Source: Nitrospirota bacterium
GTDB taxonomy: Bacteria; Nitrospirota; Thermodesulfovibrionia; Thermodesulfovibrionales; UBA1546
Length of the DNA stretch: 64,000 nt
Assembly (NCBI GenBank): GCA_016195565.1
Contig: JACPZK010000004.1
Span: 4,003 to 68,002 of the forward strand
Direction: 5' to 3'
The translations under genes and the position numbers were made by a program. Below, one piece after another: positions 7,559-59,464 of the stretch. The notes beneath the pieces are model-generated. The model worked only from the letters and a program-made list of their open reading frames with translations. It was not told where the DNA came from and made no database searches. Each line of letters begins with the position of its first letter. Positions within the stretch are counted from its first letter, which is position 1.

Positions 7559-7637
7559 CTCCTTGATGAAAATATATTTGATTTTCTGTATCATAAGGCT
7601 TGCCATTAGACAACAGGACGGAGGAAAAGGGGCGTAG

Positions 7638-9661: not shown

Positions 9662-9702
9662 TTCATAAACTTACAGGCCTGATTTAATTAAGGGGGGATT
9701 GC

Positions 9703-10671: not shown

Positions 10672-10694
10672 AACAACAAAACAAAGGCATTACA

Positions 10695-10964
10695 ATGAAC
10701 AAAAATGATAAAGAGGAATTGACTATACTGAGAATGTTATCAATACTCGCATTGCTTTTATTAGCATCTGTCGCATGTGCGCCGCCAGCTATTAAGACCA
10801 CTGCCCTTATGCCTGCAAAGTTTCATGAAGCTGCACAGTTAAAGGAAGTGGCTGTATTGCCTTTTGAAGGTGAGAGGGGAAGAGAGTTTTCAGCTGAAAT
10901 TGAAGGAGTTCTGGCAGGCGTAAACATTGGTGATAAACAATATTTTTCTTTGGCAGATAGCTAA
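10695..10964 (+). CDS. short lipoprotein ORF, possibly a truncated CsgG/LpoB-like N-terminal fragment
   Basis: Lipobox (LLLASVAC). Contains the EVAVLPFEGERG motif shared with neighbouring genes but ends after 89 aa. Confidence 0.35.
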   Translation: MNKNDKEELTILRMLSILALLLLASVACAPPAIKTTALMPAKFHEAAQLKEVAVLPFEGERGREFSAEIEGVLAGVNIGDKQYFSLADS

Positions 10965-11142
10965 AAAACAGGAAAAATCGCCAGTTTAATTGACCTGAAA
11001 GGCGGTGTTTTTGTCGCTTTATAGAAACTTTTAAGGCGGAGGTGAATTTTACCTTTACATATATTGCTGTTAGTGGTAAATAGTAAGAAGAGACGATGCT
11101 AATGCTATTAATAACTTTAACGACAAAACGAAGGAGGTAGGT

Positions 11143-12354: not shown

Positions 12355-12361
12355 CATTAAA

Positions 12362-12428
12362 TTAAAAGTTGGAAGTTGAAAATGAAAAGTTTTAAAACTC
12401 TTAATTCTAAACTTTTAACTCTTAACTT
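12362..12428. repeat. AAAGT-unit dispersed repeat in inverted configuration (intergenic)
   Basis: ttaaaagttggaagttgaaaatgaaaagtt is followed by its imperfect reverse complement aactcttaattctaaacttttaactcttaactt. It could fold as a long hairpin after gene 11143..12354. Confidence 0.8.
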
Positions 12429-12446
12429 AAATAAAAGGAGGACGAT

Positions 12447-13457: not shown

Positions 13458-13504
13458 ATAACGTTAAAGAGTCAACCCCGAGCTGATCGGGGCATGGGTT
13501 TAAG

Positions 13505-13541
13505 CATGAGTGACAGACGATTAGAGCGTCTGTCACTCATG
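13505..13541. terminator. perfect 15-bp-stem hairpin (possible terminator or RNA element)
   Basis: CATGAGTGACAGACG (13505-13519), 7-nt loop, CGTCTGTCACTCATG (13527-13541). Preceded by a smaller hairpin CCCCGA..TCGGGG (13477-13493). No T-tract follows. Confidence 0.4.
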
Positions 13542-13575
13542 ACGTTATGGGGATTCTTTAGGAGGTAAAAGGCTG

Positions 13576-15240
13576 ATGGCTATCTTAATAATATTCCTAT
13601 GCATGGTTGCAGTTTTTTCTCCCCTGCCGTGTTCAGCCAAGACCCTTATTCTTGACGGAGATCTGGAAAGCGGGATAAAGATGTCCCAGCAGATCAGCTT
13701 TGACGTCCAGCAGAGCGTAAAATCATTAACTTTTAAATTTGCTCTTCCGACTGAATTTTCCAATAAGGCAACGTCACAGGGTGTTGACAGCCTGAATATA
13801 AAATTTACGCCTGAACCGGTATCAGTTACAGATGATATAGATAAATTCGGCAACAGGTTTAAAAAAGTCAGGTGGGAGAACCTTAATCAGCGCGTCAATA
13901 TTACAATATCATTCAATGCCCGCATAAAAGCGGAACTGCGTTCAATGGAGAGCACCGCCCCGTTCCCTTTAAACGGAATATCAGGCAATGACGCTGTATT
14001 TCTCAAGCCGACACAGATGGTGCAAAGCGACAATGAAGAAATAATGGCCCTCTCAAGGAGGCTTACAGGCAATGCAAGGACCACTCACGATGCCGTGAAC
14101 GCAATACTTAACTGGGTAGCTGACAATGTGAAGTACACTTACAACCCTCCTCAATACGATGCGATACACACGATGAAAACAGGCAAGGGCAATTGCCAGA
14201 ACTTTGCGCATCTCTCAATGGCATTGCTAAGAGCCGCAGGCATTCCCTCCAGAATTGTCGGCGGCATCAGCCTTAAACGCCAGTGGAAGGTCCCTGTTGA
14301 AAACGGTTATCTTGTGCAGGATATGGGGCAGGGCGGACATGCATGGATGGAGATATTCTTTCCTGATTTAGGATGGCTTTCCTATGATCCCCAGCAGTCA
14401 AGGCAGTTTACTTCAACAAGGCATATCAAACAGACGCACGGACTGGATTCAAAGGATATTAATGACTCATGGTCAGCGTCTCCCTATCTGCCGAAATACA
14501 GCGAGGACATAGAAGCTGTATTTAATAACGACAACATCAATATAAAACTAAGGTCTTCAAAGAGCGCTCCCGTATCTTATATAATGAGCAATAATCTCAT
14601 GGCAAAAACAATCGCCCCTGAAAAACCACTGCCGCCGATTCCTAAACCTGAACCGCCTGTGACAAGGCCGGAACCTCCGGTTAAGCCTTCCCCTAAAAAG
14701 AAAGGCATTATCGAATTCGGCAATACGGACTTTCCAACACTTGTTGATGCCTATCAAACTGTTGGAAATGTTGCTACAAGGATTCTTGATAAAGAGACTG
14801 CCGAGTATGTAACATCACGGTATATTTATGCACAGGCGTTTACCGTGACTGATACGATGACAATGTATGAAGTGTCTCTTGCCATGCGAAAATTCGGAGG
14901 CGACGGCACGCTCTATATTGATATTGTTAAGGATGAAAATGGGAAGCCAGGTTTTGCCGGAGAAAGATCGCTGCCTGTTTTCCTTGGAAACATAAAGTTC
15001 CGTCCGGGTTATTACTGGATAGATTTTGTATTTGCTAAAGCTAATGAGCCGTCGCCTGTTCTTAAGCCGGGCAAATACTGGATAATACTCAGGCATTCAG
15101 GAGAGGCGATAGTAAACTGGTTTTATATTCCCGGCAATGCTTATGGGGACGGAGACGATACGCGTTCAACTGTTAAGGGCTATAAATGGGAAGACCTGCT
15201 GAATTACGACTTCGTGTTTAAGGTGAGGGGGAAAATATAA
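13576..15240 (+). CDS. exported transglutaminase-like cysteine protease superfamily protein
   Basis: Signal peptide. Transglutaminase core motif GKGNCQNFAHLSMALLRAAGIPSRIV ... GGHAWMEIFFPDLGWLSYDP (Cys-His-Asp). Pro-rich linker PEKPLPPIPKPEPPVTRPEPPVKP. Confidence 0.8.
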   Translation: MAILIIFLCMVAVFSPLPCSAKTLILDGDLESGIKMSQQISFDVQQSVKSLTFKFALPTEFSNKATSQGVDSLNIKFTPEPVSVTDDIDKFGNRFKKVRWENLNQRVNITISFNARIKAELRSMESTAPFPLNGISGNDAVFLKPTQMVQSDNEEIMALSRRLTGNARTTHDAVNAILNWVADNVKYTYNPPQYDAIHTMKTGKGNCQNFAHLSMALLRAAGIPSRIVGGISLKRQWKVPVENGYLVQDMGQGGHAWMEIFFPDLGWLSYDPQQSRQFTSTRHIKQTHGLDSKDINDSWSASPYLPKYSEDIEAVFNNDNINIKLRSSKSAPVSYIMSNNLMAKTIAPEKPLPPIPKPEPPVTRPEPPVKPSPKKKGIIEFGNTDFPTLVDAYQTVGNVATRILDKETAEYVTSRYIYAQAFTVTDTMTMYEVSLAMRKFGGDGTLYIDIVKDENGKPGFAGERSLPVFLGNIKFRPGYYWIDFVFAKANEPSPVLKPGKYWIILRHSGEAIVNWFYIPGNAYGDGDDTRSTVKGYKWEDLLNYDFVFKVRGKI

Positions 15241-15282
15241 TGAAACAATCATGTCTCAAGGAGAGACAAAGAGCAATGAAAG

Positions 15283-15420
15283 TGTCATTGCGAGGAGCGA
15301 GATTCCTCACTTGTCATTGCGAGACTCACAAAGTGAGACGAAGCAATCTCAAAACAGGTTCGGAACAGGCTCCGCAGTCTTTAGATGCGAGATTGCCACG
15401 CCTTCGGCTCGCAATGACAA
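15283..15420. repeat. MITE/REP-like element with GTCATTGCGAG terminal inverted repeats
   Basis: GTCATTGCGAG at 15283 and again at 15313. The complement CTCGCAATGAC is near 15407-15417. An internal hairpin CTCAC-AAA-GTGAG is present. A related copy lies at 39218-39309. Confidence 0.7.
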
Positions 15421-15425
15421 GTTAG

Positions 15426-15890
15426 ATGTATTTTCAGATGAAAATACTCAGTATACTGGCTGTTTTTGTTTTTTTCATGCTTTCGGCAGACGCCCTGTCT
15501 GCTGAGAAGGCGCAGAAACAAAACCCGCCCCTGTCCAAAGAAGAAATTCAGAAGTTAAGAGATATAGCAGTGATTATCGCGGAAGAAATAACAAGAAGAA
15601 ACATAAAGTCTGTTACAATAATAGATTTTAAAGACATTGAAGGCAATCCCTCAAAAAGAGGGAAAACAGTTGCTGCTGAATTCCGAAAGCAGATGGAGGC
15701 TTTAGGCAAGGCAAATTTTACGGTTAAGGACAGCGGCGGAGGCGCTTTGGTTACGGGAATGTTTCTTCCGTTTAAGGGCGGCGATAAATGGAGGCTGGAC
15801 ATAAAAGTCATAGAAGCTTTGTCGCCTGACAACAGGCTTATTACCTCTTACAGCGGGTTTTTCAGAAAAACAAAAGGGGTGAAAAAATGA
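15426..15890 (+). CDS. exported protein, unknown function (FlgO/TolB-N-like pattern, tentative)
   Basis: Signal peptide. IKSVTIIDFKDIEGNPSKRGKTVAAEFRKQMEAL resembles the N-terminal module seen in neighbouring CsgG/DUF799-like proteins. Confidence 0.4.
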   Translation: MYFQMKILSILAVFVFFMLSADALSAEKAQKQNPPLSKEEIQKLRDIAVIIAEEITRRNIKSVTIIDFKDIEGNPSKRGKTVAAEFRKQMEALGKANFTVKDSGGGALVTGMFLPFKGGDKWRLDIKVIEALSPDNRLITSYSGFFRKTKGVKK

Positions 15891-18172
15891 AAAATATATT
15901 GTCAGTCTCATCAATCCTATTTGTTTTAATATTCCTTTCATCATGCGCGCCGACACAGGAGATAAAAAAAGACACGCCTGAAGCACAGGCTGTTGCAGAA
16001 GAAGAACTTCCAAGAATCGTTGCAGTCCTGCCATTTCAGAACGATACAGAGGAAAGAGGCATAGCAAATCAGGTCAGGAAAGCATTTTACAACCATTTCA
16101 GTTCCAAACCTTACAGAGATATTGAGCCCTCAATCCTTGATGAAAAAATCGTGCATCTGGAAAAAGCTACAGGCAAAACTGTTCTTGAACTGAAACCTGC
16201 TGAGGTATGCCAATCGCTCGGATGTGACGGGCTGGTATATGGCAGGATCACTGACTTTAAAAAAGTTTACGCTGCTGTTTATTCCCAACTCGGTGTGGAA
16301 GCAGAGGTATGGATAGTGAATACAAAAACAGGGAAAGAGGTATTAAGGTTAAAGGACGCTGTGAGATACCACGAAGGCGGAGTTCCACTATCTCCGCTTG
16401 GAATAATAATGACTGCTGTGTCTACAGCTATGAATCTCAGGGAGATTCAGCAAGTAAGGCTGGTAAGTGAGCTTGCTTACAAGTTAAATGAAAAGATACC
16501 TTCTCCGTCAGGAATGGCCGCTGAGGACAGGCCTGTAATTAAGGAAGTGCTGACTAATATAAAAGAAGGGCCGTTCGGAAAAGGCAAGATAATCAGGGCA
16601 GGGCTTGAAGGCGACAAGTCAATGGTGGCAATGTTTGACATAGGCAATTACAAAAAGAACATTCCGATGAAAGAGGTAAAACCCGGCATCTATACCGGAG
16701 AATACCTTGTGCTGCCCGGAGATAACATAAAAGACATGCCCATCGTTGCTACGCTGAAAAAACCCGGCGGATATGAAAGCCAGTGGATGGATGTAAGCGG
16801 TTTTGTGACGATTGATACCACTCCGCCCCCTCAGGTCAAGGGCGTGAAGGCGAAAGGATTTCACGACAGGATTGAGCTTGCATGGGAGCCGTTAAAGGAC
16901 ATATCCGACCTCGCAGGTTATAAGGTCTTAAGAAGCGAGCAGCCTCTAAGCGGATATGCTGAGATAGCTAAAGTAGAAGTCAGTATTTTTGAAGATAAAA
17001 CAGCCAAGCCTGATAAGATTTATTATTACAGGGTTTCGGCATTTGACCTGACAGGCAATGAATCAGACCTGCAGGACCCTCTCAGGGCCTCTCTCGTATC
17101 CAAAGAACCTGTCCCGCTTTCAGGCGAGCTTAAAAAAGATACTGTTCTTTCGGGAAATTATATTGTGAAAAACAGCCTCACAGTCCCCAAGGGTTTATCG
17201 CTGACGATAGAGCCCGAAACGCTGATTATGTTTGATGAGAATGCATCTCTCAATGTTTATGGCAAAATGATTGCAAGCGGAAAGGAATCTCCTGTTGAAC
17301 TTATACCCGCAGGAGATAAAAAGTGGAAGGGCATAACCGCTGATGGAGCCAATATCGCGGTCAGCGGTTTCCGCATTAAAGGCGCAGCAACTGCAATGCT
17401 TTTGCGAAACACAGAGGGCTCAATGGAAAACGGTGTAATCACAGGCAGCAATATCGGAGTTTCTGTCTCGGGCACACCCTCTGTTGCAATGAAAGGCTTA
17501 ACAATCTCAGGCAATAAAACAGGGATTGAGCTTCAACAGACAGATGCAAAGGTTCTTCAGGCAAACATCTTTCAGAATGCCGAAGGCATCCGCATAAAGG
17601 GATTTTCAGGAGAGATAAAAGACAATAACATCGTTGACAATGAGAAGAACATCTCATCCGAATCAAACATAAAAATTGGCGCAAACTATCTCGGCTCCAT
17701 AAACGTAGATGAGATGAGAATAAAAGGAATCAGCTTAACAAAGACGTATGACAATAAAGTTCCTGACGGCAAGATTGTGGATGCTATTTTCAACCCCTAT
17801 GCGCTTCTAAACAATGAGGAACGCCAGAAAAAGGCAACGGAATTTCTTATTGAGGCAGGCAGCTATTTCAGGCAGAGGAATTACGGCAAGGCAGTAACGC
17901 TTTTTGAAGAAGCATTAAAGGCATTCCCGACTGCTGATACATATTATTACATTGCGCTTTGTTATCAGGAGATGAAGGAAGATGAGAAGGCTCTGAAATA
18001 TTTAAAAGAAGGCGTTGAGAAGTTCCCGAAAGATTCCACGCTCCAAAAATCCCTCGGCCTTATGTATTACCAGAAGGGCAGGGATGCAGAGGCCAAGAAG
18101 GCATTTGAAGAAGTCCTGCGGCTGAGCCCCGAAGACAGACAGGTTAAATTCATGCTTGAGAGGATGAAGTAA
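15887..18172 (+). CDS. multidomain lipoprotein: DUF799/GNA1162-like N-terminus, FN3-like, beta-helix-like repeats, C-terminal TPR
   Basis: ATGA overlap with the upstream gene. Lipobox (IFLSSC|AP). RIVAVLPFQNDTEERGIANQVRKAFYNHF..GCDGLVYGRITDF. FN3-like segment (GYKVLRSEQPLSGY..YYYRVSAFDLTGNES). TPR at the end (YYYIALCYQEMKEDEKALKYLKEG). Confidence 0.55.
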   Translation: MKNILSVSSILFVLIFLSSCAPTQEIKKDTPEAQAVAEEELPRIVAVLPFQNDTEERGIANQVRKAFYNHFSSKPYRDIEPSILDEKIVHLEKATGKTVLELKPAEVCQSLGCDGLVYGRITDFKKVYAAVYSQLGVEAEVWIVNTKTGKEVLRLKDAVRYHEGGVPLSPLGIIMTAVSTAMNLREIQQVRLVSELAYKLNEKIPSPSGMAAEDRPVIKEVLTNIKEGPFGKGKIIRAGLEGDKSMVAMFDIGNYKKNIPMKEVKPGIYTGEYLVLPGDNIKDMPIVATLKKPGGYESQWMDVSGFVTIDTTPPPQVKGVKAKGFHDRIELAWEPLKDISDLAGYKVLRSEQPLSGYAEIAKVEVSIFEDKTAKPDKIYYYRVSAFDLTGNESDLQDPLRASLVSKEPVPLSGELKKDTVLSGNYIVKNSLTVPKGLSLTIEPETLIMFDENASLNVYGKMIASGKESPVELIPAGDKKWKGITADGANIAVSGFRIKGAATAMLLRNTEGSMENGVITGSNIGVSVSGTPSVAMKGLTISGNKTGIELQQTDAKVLQANIFQNAEGIRIKGFSGEIKDNNIVDNEKNISSESNIKIGANYLGSINVDEMRIKGISLTKTYDNKVPDGKIVDAIFNPYALLNNEERQKKATEFLIEAGSYFRQRNYGKAVTLFEEALKAFPTADTYYYIALCYQEMKEDEKALKYLKEGVEKFPKDSTLQKSLGLMYYQKGRDAEAKKAFEEVLRLSPEDRQVKFMLERMK

Positions 18173-18297
18173 TAGAAGTTCAACGGAGATGCAATCAAGG
18201 CAGAATACCCAATCCGTTCTACTGGGCGGTGTTTATATTGCATGGTGAGGGATAGTTGTTTTCAGTTATCAATAGATAAATGAACGAGGAGGGTGCG

Positions 18298-19908
18298 ATG
18301 AACAGAACTATTTTTTCAGCCGCTATTCTGATTTTTTCTTTTGTGTTTTTAAGTAATGCATGGGCATCTCCTGCAGAGATAGAGAGTGTCCCGAAAATCC
18401 AGAACATTGTCCTTTATCCGGACAGCGCAATGATAAAGAAGGAGACGGTCTTTATGGTTAAGAAAGGCGAAAATATCATAAGGATTTCCGGATTGACTGT
18501 AAATTTAACGGACGAATCGGTTCAGGTGAATATTAAGGACAAGGCTGCTGTCAGGATATCCGATGTCAAGGTTGAAAAGACATATCTCCAGAAGACAATG
18601 CAGGACAAGATACAAAAGCTCCAGTCGAGGCTTGAAAGTATTAATGAGCTTATAAAGGAACACTCAAATGAAATCTCCGCAATAAACAGTTCCATCGAAT
18701 TTTTAAAGAAGACAGTTCCATTCCCCCAAAACCAGAAGGTTACACAATCCGAGGTCGAAGGACATGCTAAGTTTATCGAAAAATCTTTATCGGCAAGCTA
18801 CGACAGGACTGCAAAACTTGAAAATAAAATAAAGAAGCTTAATGAAGAAAAGAGGGCAGTGGAAAATGAGCTTAAAACCCTAAGCTCATCAAGGGATGAA
18901 AGCAAAACAATCGTGATCAATCTGCTTTCGAATGCAGACAGGGAAATTAATCTTGGGCTTTCCTACATTGTTGCAAATGCAGGCTGGTCTCCGCAGTACG
19001 ATGTAAGGGCTGACTCTGCCACAGGAAAGATTGATATTGTGTGTTTTGCAGTCATAACCCAGTCTACAGGTGAGGACTGGAAGAATGCGAATATCGAGAT
19101 ATCAACAGCAAGGCCTTCTTATGGGCCTCCTCCGGAACTTTCCGCATGGTATGTGGATATTTACAAGCCGAGGCCTTCAAGCTATAAATATAAAAAGGCT
19201 GTTAAAAGTGAAGACTTAATGATGGCGGAGAAAGTATTTGAGGCAGCTCCGGAACAGCAATTCGAAGAGCCGAAGATAAAGGCAGAGGCCACATCATTCA
19301 GCTTTATAATCCCGGGCAAGGTCAATATTCCATCAGACAACCAGCCGCACAGGATATTAATCGCATCCTCATCCAAAGAGGCTAAACTCGACTATTATGC
19401 AGCGCCGAAGCTCTCAAGACACGCGCATTTAAGGGCAGGACTTAAAAACCCGCTTCCGTTTCCAATCTTCTCAGGGCAGATGAGTATATTTTTAGATGAA
19501 CGCTTTGTGAATACAACATCTGTTAATAAGCAGATTCTTCCTGACGAGGACATGAGCCTGTCGCTCGGCATCGATGAAGGTATTAAGATAGAGAAAAAGC
19601 TCCTGAAGAAATTTACCGAATATTCCGGAGTGTTTTCAAAAGATACTCAGATAAACTACGAATATGCTATTGACATTGTCAGCAGCAAAGACAAAGAAAT
19701 CGGAATTAATATCCGAGATAATTTTCCTGTCTCAAAGAATGAGCAGATAAAGATTGCCCTTGAATCTCCCAAAAAAGAAGATGCAAAAATCTCCGACGAG
19801 GGGATAATATCATGGGAGTTAAGGCTTAAGCCCAATGAGAAGAAAACCCTGAAAATAAAATTCAGGGTCGAGCATCCGAAGGACTTGAAGATTACCGGAT
19901 TGGAGTAG
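18298..19908 (+). CDS. exported DUF4139-family protein (mucoidy-inhibitor MuiA-like)
   Basis: ATG at 18298 follows GAGGAGGG. Signal peptide. Coiled-coil region, then GWSPQYDVRADSATGKIDI, typical of DUF4140/DUF4139 proteins. Confidence 0.65.
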   Translation: MNRTIFSAAILIFSFVFLSNAWASPAEIESVPKIQNIVLYPDSAMIKKETVFMVKKGENIIRISGLTVNLTDESVQVNIKDKAAVRISDVKVEKTYLQKTMQDKIQKLQSRLESINELIKEHSNEISAINSSIEFLKKTVPFPQNQKVTQSEVEGHAKFIEKSLSASYDRTAKLENKIKKLNEEKRAVENELKTLSSSRDESKTIVINLLSNADREINLGLSYIVANAGWSPQYDVRADSATGKIDIVCFAVITQSTGEDWKNANIEISTARPSYGPPPELSAWYVDIYKPRPSSYKYKKAVKSEDLMMAEKVFEAAPEQQFEEPKIKAEATSFSFIIPGKVNIPSDNQPHRILIASSSKEAKLDYYAAPKLSRHAHLRAGLKNPLPFPIFSGQMSIFLDERFVNTTSVNKQILPDEDMSLSLGIDEGIKIEKKLLKKFTEYSGVFSKDTQINYEYAIDIVSSKDKEIGINIRDNFPVSKNEQIKIALESPKKEDAKISDEGIISWELRLKPNEKKTLKIKFRVEHPKDLKITGLE

Positions 19909-19940
19909 GGTGCGAGTATTGGGGGAGGGAGGGAAATAAT

Positions 19941-20252
19941 ATGAACCCGAAGTTCGTCAAGACATTTGTTTGGGCTGCGGTAATCAGCATTTTACTCGGC
20001 ATGGCTGTTATGTCCCCTGCCGGCAGCTTTTTTCTCTACTCAGTTGCAGTGCTTTTTGCTGCAATTCCGACAATCTTTGGCACTAAGAGAACGCGTACTG
20101 CAGCCATCGTGATATTGGCTCTATCCATTGCCTTGCTTGCCGTAACATATCCGAAATTTAATATTGAAATGACGAAATATAGAGAGCGTGCTCATAAGAA
20201 GTCTTCAGAGGGCTCGGCAGTGCCGACTCATCCGCAACAAGGGAGCAGGTAA
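19941..20252 (+). CDS. small integral membrane protein
   Basis: 103 aa with predicted hydrophobic helices. RBS GGGAGGGAGGG upstream. Confidence 0.5.
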   Translation: MNPKFVKTFVWAAVISILLGMAVMSPAGSFFLYSVAVLFAAIPTIFGTKRTRTAAIVILALSIALLAVTYPKFNIEMTKYRERAHKKSSEGSAVPTHPQQGSR

Positions 20253-20405
20253 ACACTGAGATATTTGTGCAGACGGGATATTATTGAGGTGGGATAATAA
20301 GCCTTAAACAGTCTTTTGCTGTAAGGATTTTTAATAGCAGATTTAATCAAACAAAAAGAGTGAGCGGGTTATGAAATTAGAGAAAGTCGCAATGTGAAAA
20401 TTACC

Positions 20406-20434
20406 TTTACCTATGAGAATAGTGCTGATATAAT
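20406..20434 (+). promoter_or_regulatory. candidate sigma70-type promoter for 20458..21447
   Basis: TTTACC (20406-20411), 17-nt spacer, TATAAT (20429-20434). Preceded by TGTGAAAATTACC, similar to 11042-11053. Confidence 0.4.
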
Positions 20435-20457
20435 TTGGTTCAAAAAAGAGATGCACT

Positions 20458-21447
20458 ATGAATAGAAAGATATTTATAAGCCTTTTTCTCTTTACGTTTT
20501 TCTTAACCCCTACCTTTGCCTCTGAAAAGCAGGAAAGTCCCGTAAAACCTGAAAATATTGTTTATGAAAAATACATATCAGAGGGTAATTTTTTTGTTGT
20601 ATTGATCCCTAAAGGATGGGGCAAAAAAGAAAAGGATTTTTCACACGCTTACACAAGAACAGGGGATAAGGTATTCGGAGTAGAGCTTTCCGGACCGCAT
20701 AATGCTGCTGGCTGTGTTCCAGTAGAAAAAGTACATGGATCTGGAGGTGAGGTTATCCAAATAAAGCAGGGAAATGTCGGCACTTTCCATGAACTCCGGA
20801 TAGGTGTCACAAATATAATTAAAGCTGATTATCTTGATGAGGCTGGCATAAAAAAGCATGGTTTAATAGCTATATTGACATTATTTATTGAAGGGAATCC
20901 CCCGCAAGAAAAGGACTTTAAAGTTCATGCGGGGCAAAAGATAATAATGGATAAATACTTAGTGTATGTGGAAGAAATACGAGGAACTGTTAAAGGCTTA
21001 GTAATATTGCGGATAGAAGAGATTTCTAAATCTCCGTATAAAGACGAGGCCCGCCTGACAATCTCCGTTTTGTATTATGAGTACGGACAGTTTTTTAAAA
21101 GTTATGAGAGATATATCAACCTCAAAATAGGGACTTTCACACGCCTCGCCCCGGAAAAAGATGTCTATATTACAAATACGGCAGTGGCGGGAAGGGAGGC
21201 TAAAAAGTTTGAGATTGAAACATTTGAACTTATTCCCCTGCCTTTTAATCCGCCTGATTTCAAGGAAGGCATCATATATGAAATTGTCCCGCCTTCAAGG
21301 AAAGTTACAGTCATAGAAAGATACATTGTAATCCCTGTTGAGAAAGGTTTTTATGTATTGAACTACAGGGCATCGCCTGATATTGCAAAAAGTATTGAAG
21401 GGATATTTGAAAAGGTTTTAAACTCTTTTGAACCATTGATAAAATGA
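20458..21447 (+). CDS. exported protein of unknown function
   Basis: Signal peptide (FLFTFFLTPTFA|SEK). I recognise no family. Confidence 0.5.
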   Translation: MNRKIFISLFLFTFFLTPTFASEKQESPVKPENIVYEKYISEGNFFVVLIPKGWGKKEKDFSHAYTRTGDKVFGVELSGPHNAAGCVPVEKVHGSGGEVIQIKQGNVGTFHELRIGVTNIIKADYLDEAGIKKHGLIAILTLFIEGNPPQEKDFKVHAGQKIIMDKYLVYVEEIRGTVKGLVILRIEEISKSPYKDEARLTISVLYYEYGQFFKSYERYINLKIGTFTRLAPEKDVYITNTAVAGREAKKFEIETFELIPLPFNPPDFKEGIIYEIVPPSRKVTVIERYIVIPVEKGFYVLNYRASPDIAKSIEGIFEKVLNSFEPLIK

Positions 21448-21486
21448 AAAAATTATACGGCTGGGAAATTTTTCATGGGAGGGGAT

Positions 21487-24400
21487 ATGCTTAGATTTAA
21501 GAATTTATTCCGCTTTTTATCAGTCTGGTTTTGGGTTATTGCCATATTGTCAATCAGCCATGTTGCTGTCTCTGCCGCTGAAAAGCCTGAGATTTTTGTG
21601 CAGATGGGACATACAAAAAGAGTTAACTCTGTAGCCTTTTCTCCTGATGGTAAATATGCCTTGTCAGGGAGTTGGGATAAAACCCTCAAGCTATGGGAGA
21701 TTGCATCCGGGAGGGAAGTGCGTACTTTTTACGGGACAGAGAAAGTGACCTCCATAGCCGTAAGTCCGAACGGAAAGTATGTCATTTCGGGAGATGAAGA
21801 TAGAGGAAAAAATCTAAAACTATGGGACATGGCGTCAGGGAAGAGGATAAGGACTTTCAGCGGGGATATACATAGAGATACCGACTATATACAAGATACC
21901 GACAATGTCATCTTCAGCCCTGATGGGAAGCATGTGTTATCAGGAGGTGAAAACCTTAACTTATGGGATATTGCATCAGGAAAAAAATTGCGGACTTTTA
22001 GAAATGCTAACAAGGATAACGCTAGAATTGTTTCAATAGTCATAAGTCCAGACGGCAGGTATGTAATTTCTGGGAGCAGGTACAACGGCCAAGTGCAAAT
22101 GCCGGACGGAACGTTTACTAACGCAAAGAGTAGTGATAACACCATCGGAATATGGGATATCGTCACAGGTGAAAAGATAAGAGCCTTTAACGGGGGTAAG
22201 GGTTGGGTTACAGCGATAGCCATAAGCCCAGATGGAAAGCATGTTATTTCGGGGGACTATGAAGATAGCGCCAGGATGTGGGACATCGCCACAGGCAGAC
22301 AGGTTAAAGCATTCAATGTGGAAGGGGTTTCCTCTATAGCTGTAAGCCCGGACGGTAAATATGCCCTATTCGGCGGCGTCATGAATATCAGGCTCTGGGA
22401 TATTGAAAAAGACAGGGAGATAAAAACCTTCAGCGGACATAGTGGTTGGGTTCGGTCTGTCGCCTTCAGTCCTGATGGAAAGTATGCGCTTTCGGGGAGT
22501 GATGATAACGCCCCCATGCTATGGGATATTGCATCCGGCAAAGAATTAAGGAGCTTTGGCGGATATACGCAACAAGTTGCCTCAGTATCGCCAAGCGCAG
22601 TTGGCAAGAAAATTCTCATAGGTCAGGAAGTTGGTTTGCTGAATCTCTGGGACATTTCAAACGGCAGGCAGATCAAAACAATCAAACACACCCTTGGTGT
22701 TCGTGCTGTGGCAATCAGCCGCGATGGCACGTATGCTGCGGCAGGCGGGTGGGATTTTCCAGAAAGCTCTTCGACCATCAAACTCTGGAACATTACAACA
22801 GGCAGGGAAATACAGACTTTGAAAAAAGCAGGGGTGTATCACTGGGCTCGCCCTGTGGCAATAAGCCCTGGCAATAAGGATATTTTTTGGTCGGTTGGCT
22901 CCACGCTCATGTTATCGGATATTGCAACAGGGAAAGAAATAAAGACATACAGTGGTGGACACAAAGCAGAAATCCAATATGCAATGATGAGTGCTGATGG
23001 CAGATATGCCATTTCTAACGATGGTCTGGCGCTTAACATCTGGGATGTCTCTACGGGCAAAGCAATAAAAACTTTTGATAATAAAAATTGGGGATATCAA
23101 GGGACTTTTAGTTCAGACGGAAAGAACGTCCTCTTGATGGGTTTCGATTACGATAAAAGCAACAAGCTCATCTTCAAAATTTGGGATATTCCGACAAACA
23201 GAGAAATAAGCACATCGGCGGTGCAATACGACTCTAAAATCAAAACTGGTAATATCGACTTATTAGCCATGAGTCACGATGGCAGATTCGCACTTTGGTC
23301 GGAGAACATGACCTTGTACCTTTGTGAAATCTCGACCGGAAAAGTGCTAAGAACTTTATCCGGGCATGTGAACCGAATATCCTTCATAGGCATAAGTCCT
23401 GATGATAAGCATGTGTACTCCGGAAGTTATGACGGCACAACCCGCCTCTGGGACATCTCCACCGGCAAAGAACTCGCCCAGTTCATCAGTTTCACCGACA
23501 GCGAATGGGTTATCATCACCCCTGAAGGCTATTTCAACGCCTCACCGAATGGCGCCAAGCATCTCAATGTCCGTGTTGGCAACAATGTTTATTCCATAGA
23601 CAACTTTTATGAAAAGTTCTTTAATCCTGTTTATGTTGCCTCTGTGCTACAGGGCAAAAAGGTTGAGGCGGTTGCAGATATAAGGAAAGGAATCTTAACG
23701 CCTCCTGATGTCAAGATTACCTCTCCTGAGCCGAACACATCATTCAGCACAGACACTGTGACAATAACCGTCTCTGCGAAGGATACAGGTGGCGGTATTG
23801 ATGAGATACGGCTTTATCATAATGGCAAGGCAATTGGCGAAGATACGAGGGCTGTAAAGATCGTTCCAAAAGGCAGCGAAACAATAAAGACATACACAGT
23901 TGCCCTCGTTGATGGACTTAACACATTCAGGGCAACTGCATTCAGCAAAGACAGGACAGAATCAAACCCGTATGAACTCATGGTAAAACTCACAGCGCCA
24001 TCAAAAGAGGTCAACCTTTATATCCTTGCAGTTGGCATAAATAAATACAAAAACCCTGCGTTGAACTTAAACTATGCAGAGCCTGACGCGCGGGGGATTG
24101 TGAATTTCTTCAGAGAAAAGGGCGGACTATTTAAAAAGGTCACTGTCATTGAGATATATGATGAGAAAGCCACCAGAGAGACGATAATCTCAAAGTTAAA
24201 GCAATTGCAAAACACCCAGCCGCAGGATGCAGTGCTGATATATCTTGCAGGACATGGCGAAAGCATTGGCGACAAATGGTATTTTATTCCCCATGAACTC
24301 ACATATCCTGAAAGAGAGGAGGACGTAAAGACAAAGGGAATATCATCGGATGAATTTTCAGGCTATATAAAAAATATAACTGCACAAAAGATGCTCGTCT

Positions 24401-24750
24401 TGATTGATGCGTGCAAGTCAGGAGCAGTGCTTGTGGCATTCAGGGGTTTTGAGGACAGGAAGGCTCTATCGCAGTTGTCAAGGTCAACAGGTGTGCATAT
24501 AATAGCAGCATCATCCAAAGACCAGTTTGCGGCAGAGGTAAAAGAACTCGGTCATGGGGTATTCACATACACCCTCCTTGAGGGATTAAAGGGCAAGGCA
24601 GCAGGCAAAGGTGAGACTGTTACAGTGAGAAAACTGATGGGATATATAGAAGAAAAACTGCCTGACATAACGAAGAAATACAAACAGGAGGCGCAATTTC
24701 CAGTAGTTGACTCAAAGGGAATGGATTTTCCGTTGGTAATAGTAAAATAG
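21487..24750 (+). CDS. exported WD40-repeat / caspase-like (peptidase C14) protein
   Basis: ATG at 21487 after GGGAGGGG. Signal peptide. More than 12 WD40 units (..SPDGKY.LSGS.D.T.KLWDI.SG.E.RTF). Ig-like segment. C14 domain with the His/Cys dyad (IYLAGHGES ... LVLIDACKSGA). Confidence 0.85.
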   Translation: MLRFKNLFRFLSVWFWVIAILSISHVAVSAAEKPEIFVQMGHTKRVNSVAFSPDGKYALSGSWDKTLKLWEIASGREVRTFYGTEKVTSIAVSPNGKYVISGDEDRGKNLKLWDMASGKRIRTFSGDIHRDTDYIQDTDNVIFSPDGKHVLSGGENLNLWDIASGKKLRTFRNANKDNARIVSIVISPDGRYVISGSRYNGQVQMPDGTFTNAKSSDNTIGIWDIVTGEKIRAFNGGKGWVTAIAISPDGKHVISGDYEDSARMWDIATGRQVKAFNVEGVSSIAVSPDGKYALFGGVMNIRLWDIEKDREIKTFSGHSGWVRSVAFSPDGKYALSGSDDNAPMLWDIASGKELRSFGGYTQQVASVSPSAVGKKILIGQEVGLLNLWDISNGRQIKTIKHTLGVRAVAISRDGTYAAAGGWDFPESSSTIKLWNITTGREIQTLKKAGVYHWARPVAISPGNKDIFWSVGSTLMLSDIATGKEIKTYSGGHKAEIQYAMMSADGRYAISNDGLALNIWDVSTGKAIKTFDNKNWGYQGTFSSDGKNVLLMGFDYDKSNKLIFKIWDIPTNREISTSAVQYDSKIKTGNIDLLAMSHDGRFALWSENMTLYLCEISTGKVLRTLSGHVNRISFIGISPDDKHVYSGSYDGTTRLWDISTGKELAQFISFTDSEWVIITPEGYFNASPNGAKHLNVRVGNNVYSIDNFYEKFFNPVYVASVLQGKKVEAVADIRKGILTPPDVKITSPEPNTSFSTDTVTITVSAKDTGGGIDEIRLYHNGKAIGEDTRAVKIVPKGSETIKTYTVALVDGLNTFRATAFSKDRTESNPYELMVKLTAPSKEVNLYILAVGINKYKNPALNLNYAEPDARGIVNFFREKGGLFKKVTVIEIYDEKATRETIISKLKQLQNTQPQDAVLIYLAGHGESIGDKWYFIPHELTYPEREEDVKTKGISSDEFSGYIKNITAQKMLVLIDACKSGAVLVAFRGFEDRKALSQLSRSTGVHIIAASSKDQFAAEVKELGHGVFTYTLLEGLKGKAAGKGETVTVRKLMGYIEEKLPDITKKYKQEAQFPVVDSKGMDFPLVIVK

Positions 24751-24769
24751 AACTGAAGGAGGTTGCGTT

Positions 24770-25621
24770 ATGCTAAAAATATTTATTTCAGCGATTTTGA
24801 GTTTATTTCTATTCTCTAACCTTTACGCTGCACAATCAACAATCATTGAATCAGAAGGCTATGCATGCATGGGCGAGGATAAATCAATGAAGCAGACAGA
24901 GCATGCCGCTATGGCAGATGCAAAGGATAAAGCGGCAAAAAATGCAGCCACTTATATCAAGGGCGAGACAAAGGTAAAAGACTCACAGTTAGTTAAGGAC
25001 ATCATTGAGGCTTATAACAACGCTACAGTTGTAGTTGATAAGGAACTTGAAAAGGGCTGGTACACTGACCCCTCATTAGGCAAATGTTACAAGGTAAAGA
25101 TAAAGGCAAATGTCATACCTGATGAAAATGCAATGAAAAGAATCTCTCAGGGAACCACAGATGATCCCTCTGCGCCTTTAAATGTACAGGTATGGACAGA
25201 TAAAAAGGAATACAAGGAAGGCGATAAGATTAAGATTTACATGAGAGGCAATAAGCCGTTTTATGCAAAGGTTATCTATAAGGAGACAACCGGAAACCTA
25301 ATCCAGATTTTACCAAACCCTTACAGGAAGGATAACTACTTTAACGGCGGTGTTATTTATGAAATCCCCTCAGGCAATGACAAATTTGAACTTGAGGTGA
25401 ACCCTCCTTTCGGCGAGGAAAGCATTATGATATACGCAAGCGTCTCTCAGCTTGGAGATTTAGATCTGAAAAAAGAGGGCGGCGTCTATCAGGTAAAAAC
25501 TAAGCCAAAAGATATAGGCATAAAGACAAGAAGCGTTAAAGTTAAGGAAGTCACAGAAGGGAAAACCCAGCAGGCAGCAGATTATTCTGAGGGGGAAGTT
25601 GTGGTAAAAACAGGGAAGTAA
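24770..25621 (+). CDS. exported protein with LPP20-like N-terminus and DUF4384-like C-terminal domain
   Basis: Signal peptide. VQVWTDKKEYKEGDKIKIYMRGNKPFYAKVIYKETTGNLIQILPNPY matches the DUF4384 pattern, a domain often associated with bacterial caspase proteins. Confidence 0.6.
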   Translation: MLKIFISAILSLFLFSNLYAAQSTIIESEGYACMGEDKSMKQTEHAAMADAKDKAAKNAATYIKGETKVKDSQLVKDIIEAYNNATVVVDKELEKGWYTDPSLGKCYKVKIKANVIPDENAMKRISQGTTDDPSAPLNVQVWTDKKEYKEGDKIKIYMRGNKPFYAKVIYKETTGNLIQILPNPYRKDNYFNGGVIYEIPSGNDKFELEVNPPFGEESIMIYASVSQLGDLDLKKEGGVYQVKTKPKDIGIKTRSVKVKEVTEGKTQQAADYSEGEVVVKTGK

Positions 25622-25753
25622 CAGTATGCTGCTGCTATTCGGGCATAATTTTGTGGTTTTGAAGGATGTCCTATAAAAGGGAAAGTTTCTACGATATTCT
25701 GAAAAGAAGAATGTCTTAAACTATCTATAAACCTCTAACTTAAGGAGGGTGAA

Positions 25754-28291
25754 ATGAAAACATTCAAAAAAATAACCATGCCAAGAATCGTGTTAATCAC
25801 TTCAATTCTGTTCCTTACCTCATGCGCAATGGCAACGGCAGTCCCGGAGATCTATTTAAAGCAGAGCGATTTAAAGATGGAGCTCAACAAAGAGGCTTAC
25901 GGCATAGATACAATGTATGTTTCAAAAGATGGAAAGTATATGCTAACTGGGAGTATGGGAGATGTTTTAACGGGACTCGGATTATCATCAAAGAGGGCTT
26001 CAATGCGGCTATGGGATCTGACAGAGGGAAAGCAGCTTCTAATGAAACCTACGTCGTCTGAACGAATGCACTCAGTTGCTCTATCGTCTGACAGCAGATA
26101 TTCTGTGACTGGCGGGTTGGCTACAGTTCATGGTTGGCAATCAAAACAGGCAGCTATTCTTGAAATATGGGATATTGCTAATAGCGTTTTATTAAAAGAT
26201 TTTAAAGATTTGCATGGTTCAGTAGTCAGCAGTGTGAATTTTTCTCCTGACGGGAGATATTTGCTTGCCACCGCAGGAACTGATATTCATCTGATTGACA
26301 CAAAAACATGGAACATAGTCAGGACAATGAGTTATAAGTATCAAAAGTCATATTTTTCCTCTCCATATTTTTCCTCTCCATATTTTTCCTCTGGAGTCGC
26401 AACATTTTCCCCGGATGGAAAGTTCATTCTTTCGGGAGGACTGGATGCGGTAGTCCGATTGTGGGATGTTGAAACGGGAAGAGAGATCAGGCAGTTCCAC
26501 GGGCATAAAAAAGGAATGTGGGGGGGTGTTAGTGCTGTTGCCTTTACTACTGACCGTTATGCGCTGACAAGCGGTTGGCATGACGATAATGTCATGCTCT
26601 GGGACATCAAGACAGGTGTTGAAGTTAGGCGATTTTCAGGATTTGAAAGTTATATGTTTACATACGTGTCCGGGCTTGCACTTTCTCCTGACGGCAAGCA
26701 TGTGTTGATTGAGGGTTTTCCACTAAAGATTTGGGATATTCAAACGGGAGAAGGGTTGACAGATCTTAATTATATATGGAAAGGGATGAAAACTGCGAGT
26801 ATTGGAAAAGCCCAGTATCATCCCAACGGACAGCATATTTTATTAACGTGGGGTGAACCCGCAGTTAGGATTTTCGATATCAAAACCGGCGAGGAAATAG
26901 CAGTCTTTATAGGCTTCGAAGACGGCGAGTGGCTAACAATTACAAGCGAGGGGTACTACAACGCTTCAGAGAAAGGCGCCCAGTATCTGACTGTTAAGAT
27001 GGGTGATAAAGACTACATGGTCGAGAGTTTTTATGACGTCTTTTACCGTCCCGATGTTGTTACAGCCAAGTTGAGGGGGGATGACATAAGCGGTCTGATA
27101 ACTATTACAATGAAAGACGCAATCAAAAGCCCTCCGCCTGTAGTTGAGATTAGCCCGATTGCGTCATCTCCAACATCTCCAAAGGCAAAAGTCTGCTACA
27201 AGGCAAAAAGCACAGGTGGAGGCATTGGAGAGATAAGGCTCTTTCATAATGGAAAACTTATCGAATCAGACGGCTACTACAAAGAAACGGCAAAGACATC
27301 AGACAAGATGCAATTAGCACAAATAAACAGCAAAACAATCTATGAAGACATGCGGAGCGTCAAAATAAAAGGCATAGGAGAGATAAGCCCGATAAAGAGC
27401 AAGACAAAAGGAGAACAATTTGAAGCCTGCAAAGAAGTGGACGCAATAGCAGGAGAAAACGAGATAAGCATAACAGCCTTTAATAAAGACAATACAGTAC
27501 AGGGCTACATGCAGACAGTAAAATTCAACTCAACAATAAAACAGGAGGACGCTAATCTTTATATCCTTTCAATAGGCATAGACCAGTATAGGGACAACAG
27601 TGTCGCCCTAAAATATGCGGCAAGGGATGCAAAAGACATTGGAGAAAAACTGATGAGACAATCAGCGACATTATACAAGCCTCAGAATATTCATTACGAG
27701 CTTCTTGCTGACAATATGGCCACAAAGGCAAACACAATAAGCAAAATAAACGATCTTTCAAAGATAATCAAACCCACAGACAGCTTCATTCTCTTCGTAG
27801 CAGGACACGGAATACTTTTACAAAACCAGTACTACATGCTAACCAGCGAATATGACGGAAATGTAAATGAAGGCACAATGATAAGTTCAAATGAAATAGT
27901 TGAAATATCCAAGAAAATAAAATCCCTCTCACAGTTATTCATCTTTGACACATGCCATGCAGGAGGCGTGGATTATATCGTGAGCGGATTATATGATGCA
28001 AGGATGTCAGTGCTTGCAAAGAAGATGGGGCTTCACATATACGCATCAGCCAATTCAAAAGAGCAGGCAATGGACGGGTATCAGGGGAATGGTTTATTCA
28101 CCTATACTCTACTTGACGGATTAAACAATAATAAAAATGCAGACAAAAACAAAGACAACAAAATCTCGCTCACAGAACTTGGAGAATACTCAAAACAGAC
28201 CACAACAGATATATCAAAAAAGATTGGGCATGCACAGACGCCTCTAATCATAAACTTTGGAAAGGACAATACGGTTTATAATTTGAGATGA
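25754..28291 (+). CDS. WD40-repeat / caspase-like (peptidase C14) lipoprotein, paralog of 21487..24750
   Basis: Lipobox (LFLTSC|AMA). WD40 units. The linker motif GEWLTITSEGYYNAS parallels SEWVIITPEGYFNAS in the paralog. C14 dyad present (LFVAGHGIL ... LFIFDTCHAGG). Confidence 0.85.
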   Translation: MKTFKKITMPRIVLITSILFLTSCAMATAVPEIYLKQSDLKMELNKEAYGIDTMYVSKDGKYMLTGSMGDVLTGLGLSSKRASMRLWDLTEGKQLLMKPTSSERMHSVALSSDSRYSVTGGLATVHGWQSKQAAILEIWDIANSVLLKDFKDLHGSVVSSVNFSPDGRYLLATAGTDIHLIDTKTWNIVRTMSYKYQKSYFSSPYFSSPYFSSGVATFSPDGKFILSGGLDAVVRLWDVETGREIRQFHGHKKGMWGGVSAVAFTTDRYALTSGWHDDNVMLWDIKTGVEVRRFSGFESYMFTYVSGLALSPDGKHVLIEGFPLKIWDIQTGEGLTDLNYIWKGMKTASIGKAQYHPNGQHILLTWGEPAVRIFDIKTGEEIAVFIGFEDGEWLTITSEGYYNASEKGAQYLTVKMGDKDYMVESFYDVFYRPDVVTAKLRGDDISGLITITMKDAIKSPPPVVEISPIASSPTSPKAKVCYKAKSTGGGIGEIRLFHNGKLIESDGYYKETAKTSDKMQLAQINSKTIYEDMRSVKIKGIGEISPIKSKTKGEQFEACKEVDAIAGENEISITAFNKDNTVQGYMQTVKFNSTIKQEDANLYILSIGIDQYRDNSVALKYAARDAKDIGEKLMRQSATLYKPQNIHYELLADNMATKANTISKINDLSKIIKPTDSFILFVAGHGILLQNQYYMLTSEYDGNVNEGTMISSNEIVEISKKIKSLSQLFIFDTCHAGGVDYIVSGLYDARMSVLAKKMGLHIYASANSKEQAMDGYQGNGLFTYTLLDGLNNNKNADKNKDNKISLTELGEYSKQTTTDISKKIGHAQTPLIINFGKDNTVYNLR
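26349..26393 (+). repeat. 3 x 15-bp perfect tandem repeat inside the WD40-caspase gene
   Basis: The unit catatttttcctctc occurs three times and encodes (S)YFSSPYFSSPYFSSG. Confidence 0.9.
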
Positions 28292-59439: not shown

Positions 59440-59464
59440 CTAATCTTGAGAAAGGAGGCATGTC

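Follow-up and report, generated by a model that had tools for sequence, protein, structure and literature searches.

A constant caspase-type protease end, a replaced WD40 region and a DUF4384 partner in a putatively exported gene module of a Nitrospirota bacterium

Three neighbouring genes (A, B and C; plus strand, 21475-28291) were studied in a 64,000-nucleotide stretch of a Nitrospirota bacterium (assembly GCA_016195565.1, contig JACPZK010000004.1, positions 4,003 to 68,002), the whole of which is called the window. Genes A and C encode WD40 proteins that end in a caspase-type protease domain (Peptidase_C14) preceded by a linker domain, LINK, and an immunoglobulin-like (Ig-like) segment, and B encodes a small protein with a DUF4384 domain; all three carry predicted export signals. 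The protease end of A was found to be conserved between close relatives, whereas its WD40 region was judged to be replaced. The reading favoured, with a probability of roughly 45%, is an extracytoplasmic sensor-protease system with a constant partner. A and C would be Sec-exported C14 (metacaspase/orthocaspase-like) cysteine endopeptidases acting outside the cytoplasm, with a linker-Ig-C14 'effector' end that would be under strong purifying selection and would most likely cut after Arg or Lys. The N-terminal WD40 propeller region would serve as an exchangeable protein-binding 'sensor', choosing what the protease meets or when it fires, and B would be a constant third component that binds to the C14 domain or serves as its substrate, or does both, with Arg254 as the candidate cleavage site. 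Sensors would be replaced by recombination and effectors kept fixed, some genomes carrying tandem arrays of differing sensors on one effector; because of this exchange and these arrays, the targets would probably be variable proteins met in the envelope, in surveillance or conflict-type recognition with no single housekeeping substrate.

The main comparison was made with the closest syntenic genome, Nitrospirae GWF2_44_13, where MuiA, three small genes, a WD40-caspase gene, a DUF4384 gene and MlaEFD follow one another, with no second caspase gene. Flanking DNA was about 92% identical to that of the window, and the flanking genes showed amino-acid identities of 87-98%, with synonymous change among identical residues of 5-20%. 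The LINK-Ig-C14 module of A gave comparable values (96.9% and 16.6%), whereas the WD40 region had an identity of 35% and a saturated synonymous change of 56%. DNA identity fell from 80-100% to 33-57% after the MuiA stop (about 19910) and was back at 77-97% from about 23430, inside the last WD40 blade of A. The segment between these points spans two open reading frames (ORFs), 19941-20252 (membrane-like, 103 amino acids) and 20458-21447 (exported, 329 amino acids, without a family), as well as the signal peptide of A and nearly its whole WD40 region; neither ORF had a Pfam match, nor did 20458-21447 have one in NCBIfam. At the same place GWF2_44_13 holds different small genes, including one for a 500-amino-acid protein with a B-like N-domain and TPR. 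Since an identity of 35% with saturated synonymous sites lies between a conserved module and conserved flanks, these alignments indicate that about 3.5 kb, including the sensor of A, is replaced and did not diverge in place.

The same mosaic pattern was met among homologous loci from genome scans (L-numbers). When 42 homologues were compared with A, the C-terminal modules were 66-95% identical and the full-length N-terminal regions mostly 18-37%, truncated ones being lower. L015 (N-terminal region 79%, C-terminal module 86%) and L009 (28% and 95%) rank in opposite order for the two parts, and therefore the two halves have incongruent histories. Gene C behaved similarly (18-35% against 79-83%), as did tandem paralogues, with C-terminal modules of 82-90% and N-terminal regions of 17-19% in L026, and 77% against 23% in L041. 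For 19 full-length representatives the median identities were 72% (C-terminal module) and 23% (N-terminal region), and the ten most divergent of 85 N-terminal regions were still WD40 in a Pfam scan. Near-identical WD40 repeats like those of fungal NOD-like receptors (NLRs) were sought and rejected, the DNA repeats being 60-85% identical over 20-46 nucleotides only, which argues for exchange of whole regions with no repeat shuffling. Differential loss of tandem paralogues was found insufficient, as the synonymous divergence of the C-terminal module equals that of the flanks and the N-terminal region is saturated. Unequal recombination within arrays is a plausible mechanism for the swap.

Export was called by a heuristic of our own, by-eye reading and conservation in homologues. 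The N-termini of A and B are type I signal-peptide-like, B starting with MLKIFISAILSLFLFSNLYA followed by AQSTI, and C starts with MKTFKKITMPRIVLITSILFLTSC, which contains the lipobox LTSC. A signal-like N terminus was present in 79 of 92 complete homologous ORFs (about 80 loci, many phyla), 14 of these 79 being lipoboxes; the other 13 include called starts that overshoot a downstream hydrophobic stretch, and gene fragments. The mature-end motif (A)EKPEIFVQ(L/M)GH is kept in homologues of several phyla, the lipobox is kept in the C orthologues of L005, L007 and L045 as LPSC, LVSC or LASC, and all 19 full-length representatives, drawn from an independent metagenome set, had hydrophobic, signal-peptide-like N termini by eye. 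In a Smithellaceae tandem paralogue (L023, 2724-5753) PDZ and thioredoxin domains, both typical of periplasmic proteins, stand ahead of WD40 and LINK-Ig-C14. An alternative downstream start is unlikely, because an untranslated leader would not keep such N-terminal features. The original prediction that all three proteins leave the cytoplasm is thus supported, and the export signals are, by their conservation, a property of the whole family and no start-codon artefact. A, B and C would accordingly lie in the periplasm, at the outer membrane or outside the cell, A probably as a soluble protein and C probably lipid-anchored, and A and B could be secreted beyond the periplasm.

Pfam confirmed WD40 (PF00400) and Peptidase_C14 (PF00656) in A and C, and DUF4384 in B. 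The His/Cys dyad, earlier described as intact, is indeed so (H923/C976 in A, H685/C734 in C). When A and C were aligned with 24 homologues of 34-100% identity, four residues were the same in all 26 sequences: the His of GHG, the Cys of DxC, the Asp that precedes this Cys by two positions, and the Asp of YAxxDA. The profile of this alignment matched Geobacter GSU0716 (3BIJ, E 1e-5) and the metacaspases Yca1, MCA2 and MC4, pairing xDA with NDA, AGHG with SGHG (HYSGHG) and DaCkSG with DSCHSG of Yca1 (4F6O). As a single sequence the C14 domain of A had no match in the PDB, the metacaspases being reached by the family profile alone. The Asp pair of the acidic S1 pocket of the metacaspase/orthocaspase type (C14B) is present in A (D867, D974) and C (D625, D732). 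In metacaspases two such Asp residues line the S1 pocket that selects Arg/Lys, as in the T. brucei MCA2 structure. The same point has been made for orthocaspases (PMC6426788). With the dyad and both pocket Asp residues invariant, A and C look catalytically competent and specific for basic residues (Arg/Lys). In A-type proteins a conserved F-R-G motif, placed 10 residues downstream of the catalytic Cys, is a candidate autoprocessing site. The A and C chains are filled by WD40, LINK, Ig and C14, and no NTPase (NB-ARC/NACHT) was found among the best 25 of 50 (A) and the best 25 of 34 (C) Pfam matches, nor in NCBIfam. The best NCBIfam match of the C14 domains was the EACC1-associated caspase NF047832, with 75 bits for A and 50.8 bits for C (cut-off 140).

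For the middle gene, the earlier description as an exported DUF4384-type protein was confirmed: residues 147-225 of B match PF14326 with 84.4 bits (E 5.9e-24, cut-off 27), behind a signal-peptide-like N terminus. The B family is tight, with a length of about 283 amino acids and more than 1500 matches. An AlphaFold2 model from a diverse alignment of 65 sequences reached a predicted local distance difference test score (pLDDT) of 82.5 and a predicted TM-score of 0.76; a first model had come from a shallow alignment (47 sequences, at least 61% identity), and its DUF4384 part (pLDDT 57) yielded Foldseek matches that were left unused. The N-domain is alpha/beta, and Foldseek matched it to Lpp20 of H. 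pylori (5OK8) with a probability of 0.99 but an E value of about 0.015; it has no Pfam match in the window protein, and FlgT_N (PF16548) is precomputed on four homologues. Apart from this Lpp20-like domain, the window holds GNA1162-like and CsgG-like genes in the set upstream of the trio (8492-19908); Lpp20, GNA1162 and CsgG-type proteins are frequently found together. The DUF4384 part is a beta-sandwich whose top small-domain fold match was a macroglobulin (MG) domain of alpha2-macroglobulin (2P9R, probability 1.0, TM-score 0.58, root-mean-square deviation 3.4 A). A role of B as an alpha2-macroglobulin-type protease trap was rejected, since it has one MG-like sandwich and a thioester or further MG domains do not fit into 283 amino acids. 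The profile of B gave only chance-level matches to PDB sequences.

Arg254 of B (25529-25531) is invariant in 65 of 65 sequences and lies in the short-helix motif D-[IT]-G-x-[KR]-T-R-[GS]-[VI]-K, beyond which the model shows a low-confidence variable loop and then a confident terminal strand. As an invariant Arg in a flexible segment beside a probable Arg-specific protease, it is a candidate cleavage or docking site for the caspase domain. Cys33 and Cys106 covary (45 CC, 16 SS, 2 SC, one T/S and one A/S), a pattern consistent with a disulfide. Elsewhere, DUF4384 has been reported as the C-terminal domain in part of the Csx30 proteins, on which the Craspase protease acts (bioRxiv 10.1101/2022.08.17.504292), in fusion with a trypsin-p20 protein in alphaproteobacteria (PMC6426788) and as the fifth commonest accessory domain of cyanobacterial orthocaspases (PMC8283722).

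At least 553 loci encode the LINK-Ig-C14 module in a scan of one genome per species. In a protein library reduced to clusters of 50% identity, 3278 cluster representatives matched at E <= 1e-30. The 150 best of these included 135 proteins not met before, every one of which has LINK and C14, in most of them with C14 at the extreme C terminus (median of 1 residue after it); with a hidden Markov model (HMM) built here, the LINK domain was likewise found conserved in about 80 loci. The family is spread over Nitrospirota, Desulfobacterota, Elusimicrobiota, Acidobacteriota, Burkholderiales and other groups, and one homologue (L077) belongs to the cultured Inhella proteolytica 1Y17, where the flanks showed no B gene. 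With HMMs built here, a DUF4384 gene was found in the available flank (at most 8 kb) of 23 of 79 distinct caspase loci, within 150 nucleotides of the caspase gene in 14, and in 10 of the 32 loci with at least 3 kb on both sides. This synteny in many unrelated genomes bears out the earlier remark that DUF4384 accompanies bacterial caspase homologues. In the reverse search from B-type proteins, 5 of 7 adjoined a C14 gene, one of these being a C14-FGE-sulfatase and no WD40-caspase. The order A-B-C is met again in L045 and L054; L007/L008 have it too, but with additional genes separating B from C. In a Deltaproteobacteria metagenome-assembled genome (MAG) the series is DUF4384, a DUF433/DUF5615 pair, then a lipoprotein caspase of the C type, while a further MAG shows an A-type C terminus followed by DUF4384, a small ORF, AbiEii, a caspase of the C type and MlaEFD.

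Some further observations concern the family and its neighbours. In L089 (3704-6849) the B-type DUF4384 gene adjoins the C14-FGE-sulfatase gene, and in L090 (6001-10614) it lies two genes from a stand-alone FGE-sulfatase, so that DUF4384 and FGE-sulfatase domains seem to share contexts; such shared contexts are likewise reported for Ser/Thr kinases. MuiA (DUF4140/DUF4139) and large TPR proteins recur near the WD40-caspase/DUF4384 pair in different genomes (L003, 1-4573; L091, 3031-12864), the TPR protein being TPR-CHAT in L003, and L091 also has a CHASE2-guanylate cyclase. Some WD40-LINK-Ig proteins (P0084 and relatives) stop after the Ig segment and lack C14, and these may represent naturally protease-less members of the family; one example, from Candidatus Kryptonium thompsoni, has 467 amino acids, with 23 member sequences on 20 contigs. 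The LINK-Ig-C14 module of the window is 76-86% identical to those of L013, L016 and L018-L025, from MAGs labelled Desulfobacteraceae, Smithellaceae, Syntrophaceae and Edwardsbacteria; phyla so far apart would be expected to show much lower values, which points to horizontal transfer or to mis-binning.

Several points weigh against an exchangeable sensor with a constant protease and partner. Localisation, activity and specificity are predicted from sequence. WD40 repeats evolve fast and are hard to align, and since low WD40 identity alone is weak evidence, the case for mosaicism is carried by the synteny, codon and incongruence analyses. The replaced segment holds two upstream ORFs too, and the swap may therefore be due to a variable island with no selection on the sensor. 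The fold matches of DUF4384 (E 1e-3 to 1e-2) are to a common sandwich fold, and many Ig-like folds match it too. Within 6 kb of one B-type gene there is neither a C14 nor an FGE-sulfatase neighbour; another lacks a C14 neighbour but is followed, two genes downstream, by an FGE-sulfatase gene. Since B is close by in no more than about one third of the caspase loci, its association with the caspase is real across phyla but facultative, B not being obligatory. PADLOC returned a generic caspase match with no known defence-system context, and the viral contigs searched held no relatives, for which reason a phage origin was dropped.

Housekeeping or regulatory envelope proteolysis is a serious rival, given the generic PADLOC match, the viral contigs without relatives, the envelope and housekeeping gene context and the other ORFs in the replaced segment, even if it is considered rather unlikely. 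A and C would then process fixed envelope proteins of the cell itself (for example B, matrix or S-layer proteins, or lipoprotein precursors), their propellers having a generic scaffolding or gating function like those of prolyl oligopeptidase or Tricorn-type peptidases and the WD40 divergence being drift with incidental recombination. The neighbourhood is rich in envelope genes (CsgG-like, FlgT_N-like, SLH, transglutaminase, GNA1162-like, MuiA, MlaEFD), MuiA and MlaEFD flank the module in several relatives, B is constant and well conserved, and PADLOC showed no defence-island context. Nevertheless, a fixed substrate leaves unexplained both the replacement of a whole sensor between flanks of about 92% DNA identity and the tandem arrays that join varied propellers to one effector, and the upstream envelope genes are kept beside the module in close relatives only. 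A constant exported protease with a constant partner and an exchangeable binder is more easily reconciled with a sensor-effector design than with a housekeeping enzyme that has one substrate. A bolder form of that design, a periplasmic innate-immune-like repertoire of receptor-proteases, must be regarded as a long shot: swapped WD40 'antigen' sensors would detect foreign proteins as they enter the envelope (candidate ligands are phage ejection or tail proteins, bacteriocins, and contact-dependent or type VI secretion system effectors) and activate the caspase, which would cut B at Arg254 or the invader, the cut triggering an envelope response. The module would in that case be a periplasmic counterpart of cytoplasmic NLR/caspase and Craspase-Csx30 signalling.

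Nutritional or surface proteases that are secreted to degrade environmental proteins, with WD40 and Ig binding the substrate or the surface, are a slightly more doubtful proposal still. Gingipains and clostripain are examples of clan CD cysteine peptidases that are secreted, Big_7 Ig-like domains are common in surface enzymes, and Inhella proteolytica has a homologue; yet C is a lipoprotein, as are 13 other homologues, the C14 domain runs to the last residue with no secretion signal such as a C-terminal domain of the type IX or type I secretion systems, and enzymes of bulk degradation are not typically paired so tightly with a small, conserved partner. Non-catalytic pseudo-proteases acting only as binding scaffolds are very improbable: pseudo-orthocaspases are common in some phyla, the dyad being present in 57% of Nitrospirae metacaspases in an early survey (PMC3501461), but none of the four residues (His, Cys and the two pocket Asp) varies among A, C and the 24 other aligned homologues. 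The least credible proposal is that of cytoplasmic programmed-cell-death or NLR-like effectors whose signal peptides are start-codon artefacts. Described WD40-orthocaspases are mostly discussed as cytoplasmic (PMC3501461, PMC5756287), but here the hydrophobic, signal-like N termini and the post-cleavage motif have been kept in different phyla although the sequences have diverged, the lipobox is kept in C orthologues, and the listed Pfam matches include no STAND/NB-ARC NTPase domain. With export signals found family-wide, an intact dyad and a syntenic DUF4384 partner, a cytoplasmic death-effector role is unlikely, and the preference of the original prediction for an envelope proteolytic or signalling role remains a reasonable frame, in which the word 'periplasmic' is a deduction from the export signals.

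The module can be set beside several known systems. Cyanobacterial and other bacterial orthocaspases with WD40 domains, for example those of the Trichodesmium TeMC9 type, share the C14 p20-like domain, the His-Cys dyad and the acidic S1 pocket, and among bacterial orthocaspases WD40 is the commonest accessory domain and DUF4384 a recurrent one (PMC3501461, PMC8283722). In contrast to these orthocaspases, the order is reversed here, with WD40 N-terminal, C14 at the extreme C terminus and LINK and Big_7 between them; additionally, the proteins start with a Sec signal or a lipobox, DUF4384 is encoded by a gene of its own next door, and WD40 is replaced between close relatives. The solved metacaspases (Yca1 4F6O, T. 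brucei MCA2 4AFR, Arabidopsis MC4 6W8S) and GSU0716 (3BIJ) were the best profile matches, with motifs and S1 Asp aligned; however, the matches are weak (E 1e-5 to 1e-3) and cover the p20-like half only, and those proteins have no WD40, Ig or signal peptide. The EACC1-caspase conflict system (Kaur et al. 2020, PMC7159879) similarly places a small constant component beside a caspase-family protein with a highly variable region, but its caspase stands at the N terminus and faces the cytoplasm; in the present proteins, which are exported, it is the N-terminal WD40 region that varies. Membership in the EACC1 type was rejected on the NCBIfam scores given above; the upstream ORFs lack the EACC1 single-transmembrane component, and the neighbour is a DUF4384 protein.

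In Craspase (type III-E CRISPR Cas7-11/Csx29) with Csx30, a caspase-like protease acts on a partner, and one Csx30 group has a C-terminal DUF4384; its protease is a cytoplasmic, RNA-activated TPR-CHAT protein, unlike the C14 domain found here, which has no CRISPR context. Sensor-orthocaspases diversified by diversity-generating retroelements and STAND 'antigen sensor' systems (PMC7517822, PMC10907252) also combine a diversified binding domain with a constant caspase-type effector, but there C-type lectin domains are mutated by a retroelement, whereas here whole WD40 regions are recombined, no reverse transcriptase lies nearby and the proteins are exported. The two WD40 propellers of A, linked to a caspase-family protease, recall the Apaf-1 apoptosome; A has no NB-ARC ATPase or CARD, however, and its propellers and protease are on one, extracytoplasmic chain.

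That WD40-caspase fusions were already known, as had been pointed out, is confirmed by surveys documenting WD40-orthocaspases and DUF4384-caspase fusions (PMC3501461, PMC8283722). The early survey also drew attention to N-terminal helices of prokaryotic metacaspases, which 'might be signal peptides', and to the high density of metacaspases in Nitrospirae (PMC3501461). No description of the exported WD40-LINK-Ig-C14 architecture, of the Lpp20-like/DUF4384 pairing or of sensor replacement was found in the literature; what appears new is thus the exported architecture, the pairing with a DUF4384 gene and the WD40 replacement. The role of bacterial caspase homologues is a long-standing question, and nearly all of its discussion presumes cytoplasmic cell death. 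The present locus belongs to a very large family that joins an exported, intact caspase-type protease to a conserved DUF4384 partner and a sensor exchanged between close relatives. If the proposal is true, the 'variable sensor plus constant protease' logic of immunity would reach the cell envelope, and DUF4384 would gain its first functional hypothesis, tied to its presence in Craspase substrates.

As regards the individual genes, the architecture said to be common to A and C stands for the signal peptide or lipobox, the linker, the Ig segment and the C14 dyad; the double propeller does not, since C has a single one of about 7-8 blades over 360 amino acids. The conserved linker motif is real, SEWVIITPEGYFNAS of A corresponding to GEWLTITSEGYYNAS of C, and opens a LINK domain of about 70 amino acids without a Pfam family; AGHG and DAC/DTC are likewise present. 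C is a paralogue of A, with which it shares 29% identity over about 840 columns (E 1e-73), and it aligns from the second propeller of A (residue 326 onward) to the C terminus. The WD40 region of A matched PF00400 with 223.5 bits, as well as many propeller families, and has about 13 SPDG-type blade motifs (14 regex matches, two of these within 10 residues of one another); its Ig domain also gave profile matches to the Ig/Fn3-like modules 3PDD and 9KVU. For C, Pfam gave 65.1 bits for WD40 and 54.2 bits for Peptidase_C14 (E 2e-14, cut-off 21.4). The Ig segment of C, with a 36-amino-acid insertion, has no Pfam match of its own and was recognised through homology to A. A WD40 blade of C contains a perfect 15-nucleotide tandem repeat (26349-26392, 2.9 copies, encoding YFSSP three times), which could be a slippage-prone site.

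Table 1. Positions of the genes, domains and residues discussed and of the upstream genes (window numbering).
Feature	Position	Strand	Basis or remarks
Segment non-homologous to GWF2_44_13	19910..23430	+	DNA identity in 30-nt windows, codon analysis
Gene A, exported WD40-linker-Ig-caspase	21487..24750	+	ORF; ribosome-binding site; Pfam WD40, Big_7, Peptidase_C14
A signal peptide (predicted)	21487..21576	+	MLRFKNLFRFLSVWFWVIAILSISHVAVSA then AEKPEIF as mature start; n-h-c layout, VSA before mature end
A WD40 region, ~14 blades (two propellers), variable 'sensor' part	21577..23481	+	Pfam WD40, blade motifs
A LINK domain, ~70 amino acids	23482..23691	+	Opens with SEWVIITPEGYFNAS, ends FYEKFFNP; no Pfam family; HMM built here
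A Ig-like domain, Big_7	23698..24006	+	PF17957, E 1.6e-11
A Peptidase_C14 domain	24013..24747	+	PF00656, 62.9 bits, E 4.8e-17, cut-off 21.4
A active-site residues	His923 (24253-24255), Cys976 (24412-24414), S1 Asp867, Asp974	+	Numbering from ATG 21487
Gene B, exported Lpp20-like + DUF4384 protein, 283 amino acids	24770..25621	+	ORF; AAGGAGG 8 nt upstream
B parts	Residues: signal peptide 1-20; Lpp20-like 21-126; DUF4384 sandwich 135-242; helix with Arg254; variable loop; terminal strand 270-283		
B-C intergenic spacer, 132 nt	25622..25753	.	Promoter/terminator scan, relatives compared
Gene C, lipoprotein WD40-linker-Ig-caspase, 845 amino acids	25754..28291	+	ORF; ribosome-binding site AAGGAGG; Pfam WD40 + C14
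C parts	Residues: lipobox LTSC with Cys24; one propeller 25-384; LINK 385-452; Ig with insertion 458-597; C14 601-845		
C active-site residues	His685 (27806-27808), Cys734 (27953-27955), Asp625, Asp732	+	
Upstream FlgT_N-like gene	8492-9661	+	
Upstream CsgG-like gene with FlgT_C	9703-10671	+	
Upstream SLH-domain protein	11143-12354	+	
Upstream transglutaminase-like gene	13576-15240	+	
Upstream GNA1162-like + NosD + TPR gene	15887-18172	+	
Upstream MuiA gene, DUF4140/DUF4139	18280-19908	+	

The three co-directional ORFs lie within 21475-28291 in the ORF listing. The ORF of A extends over 21475-24750, with in-frame ATG codons at 21475 (1091 amino acids) and 21487 (1087 amino acids); the latter is the likelier start, because a GGAGG ends 4 nucleotides before it. 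A and B are separated by 19 nucleotides and C and the next gene by 55. Simple promoter and terminator scans gave no signal above shuffled background in the B-C spacer or the rest of the locus. At the position of the B-C spacer, relatives have a DUF433/DUF5615 toxin-antitoxin-like pair or an AbiEii gene (L005, 10977-11588; L045, 1908-2519; L007, 1316-2016); being empty in the window and occupied by small modules in relatives, the spacer appears to be a landing site for small mobile modules.

The trio had also been thought to terminate a 20-kb operon-like block of envelope genes. It does not mark an end, as MlaE/F/D, a TPR protein, TrmD, RplS, RNase HII and a MiaB-like gene continue on the same strand to about 35.6 kb, and an operon tying the upstream block to the trio is unsupported, the closest relative being entirely different from MuiA to the last WD40 blade of A. 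The co-directional run is headed (6329-8345) by a BrkB-like membrane protein fused to a cyclic nucleotide-binding (cNMP-binding) domain, followed by a Crp-family regulator. Finally, an ORF with weak NHL/propeller-like matches (58642-59439) is followed by a 284-amino-acid Peptidase_C13 (legumain-like) ORF (59465-60319, E 1e-6), which weakly matches the C14 HMM built here, so that a propeller and a clan-CD peptidase are paired a second time in the window, as two genes (58642-60319).

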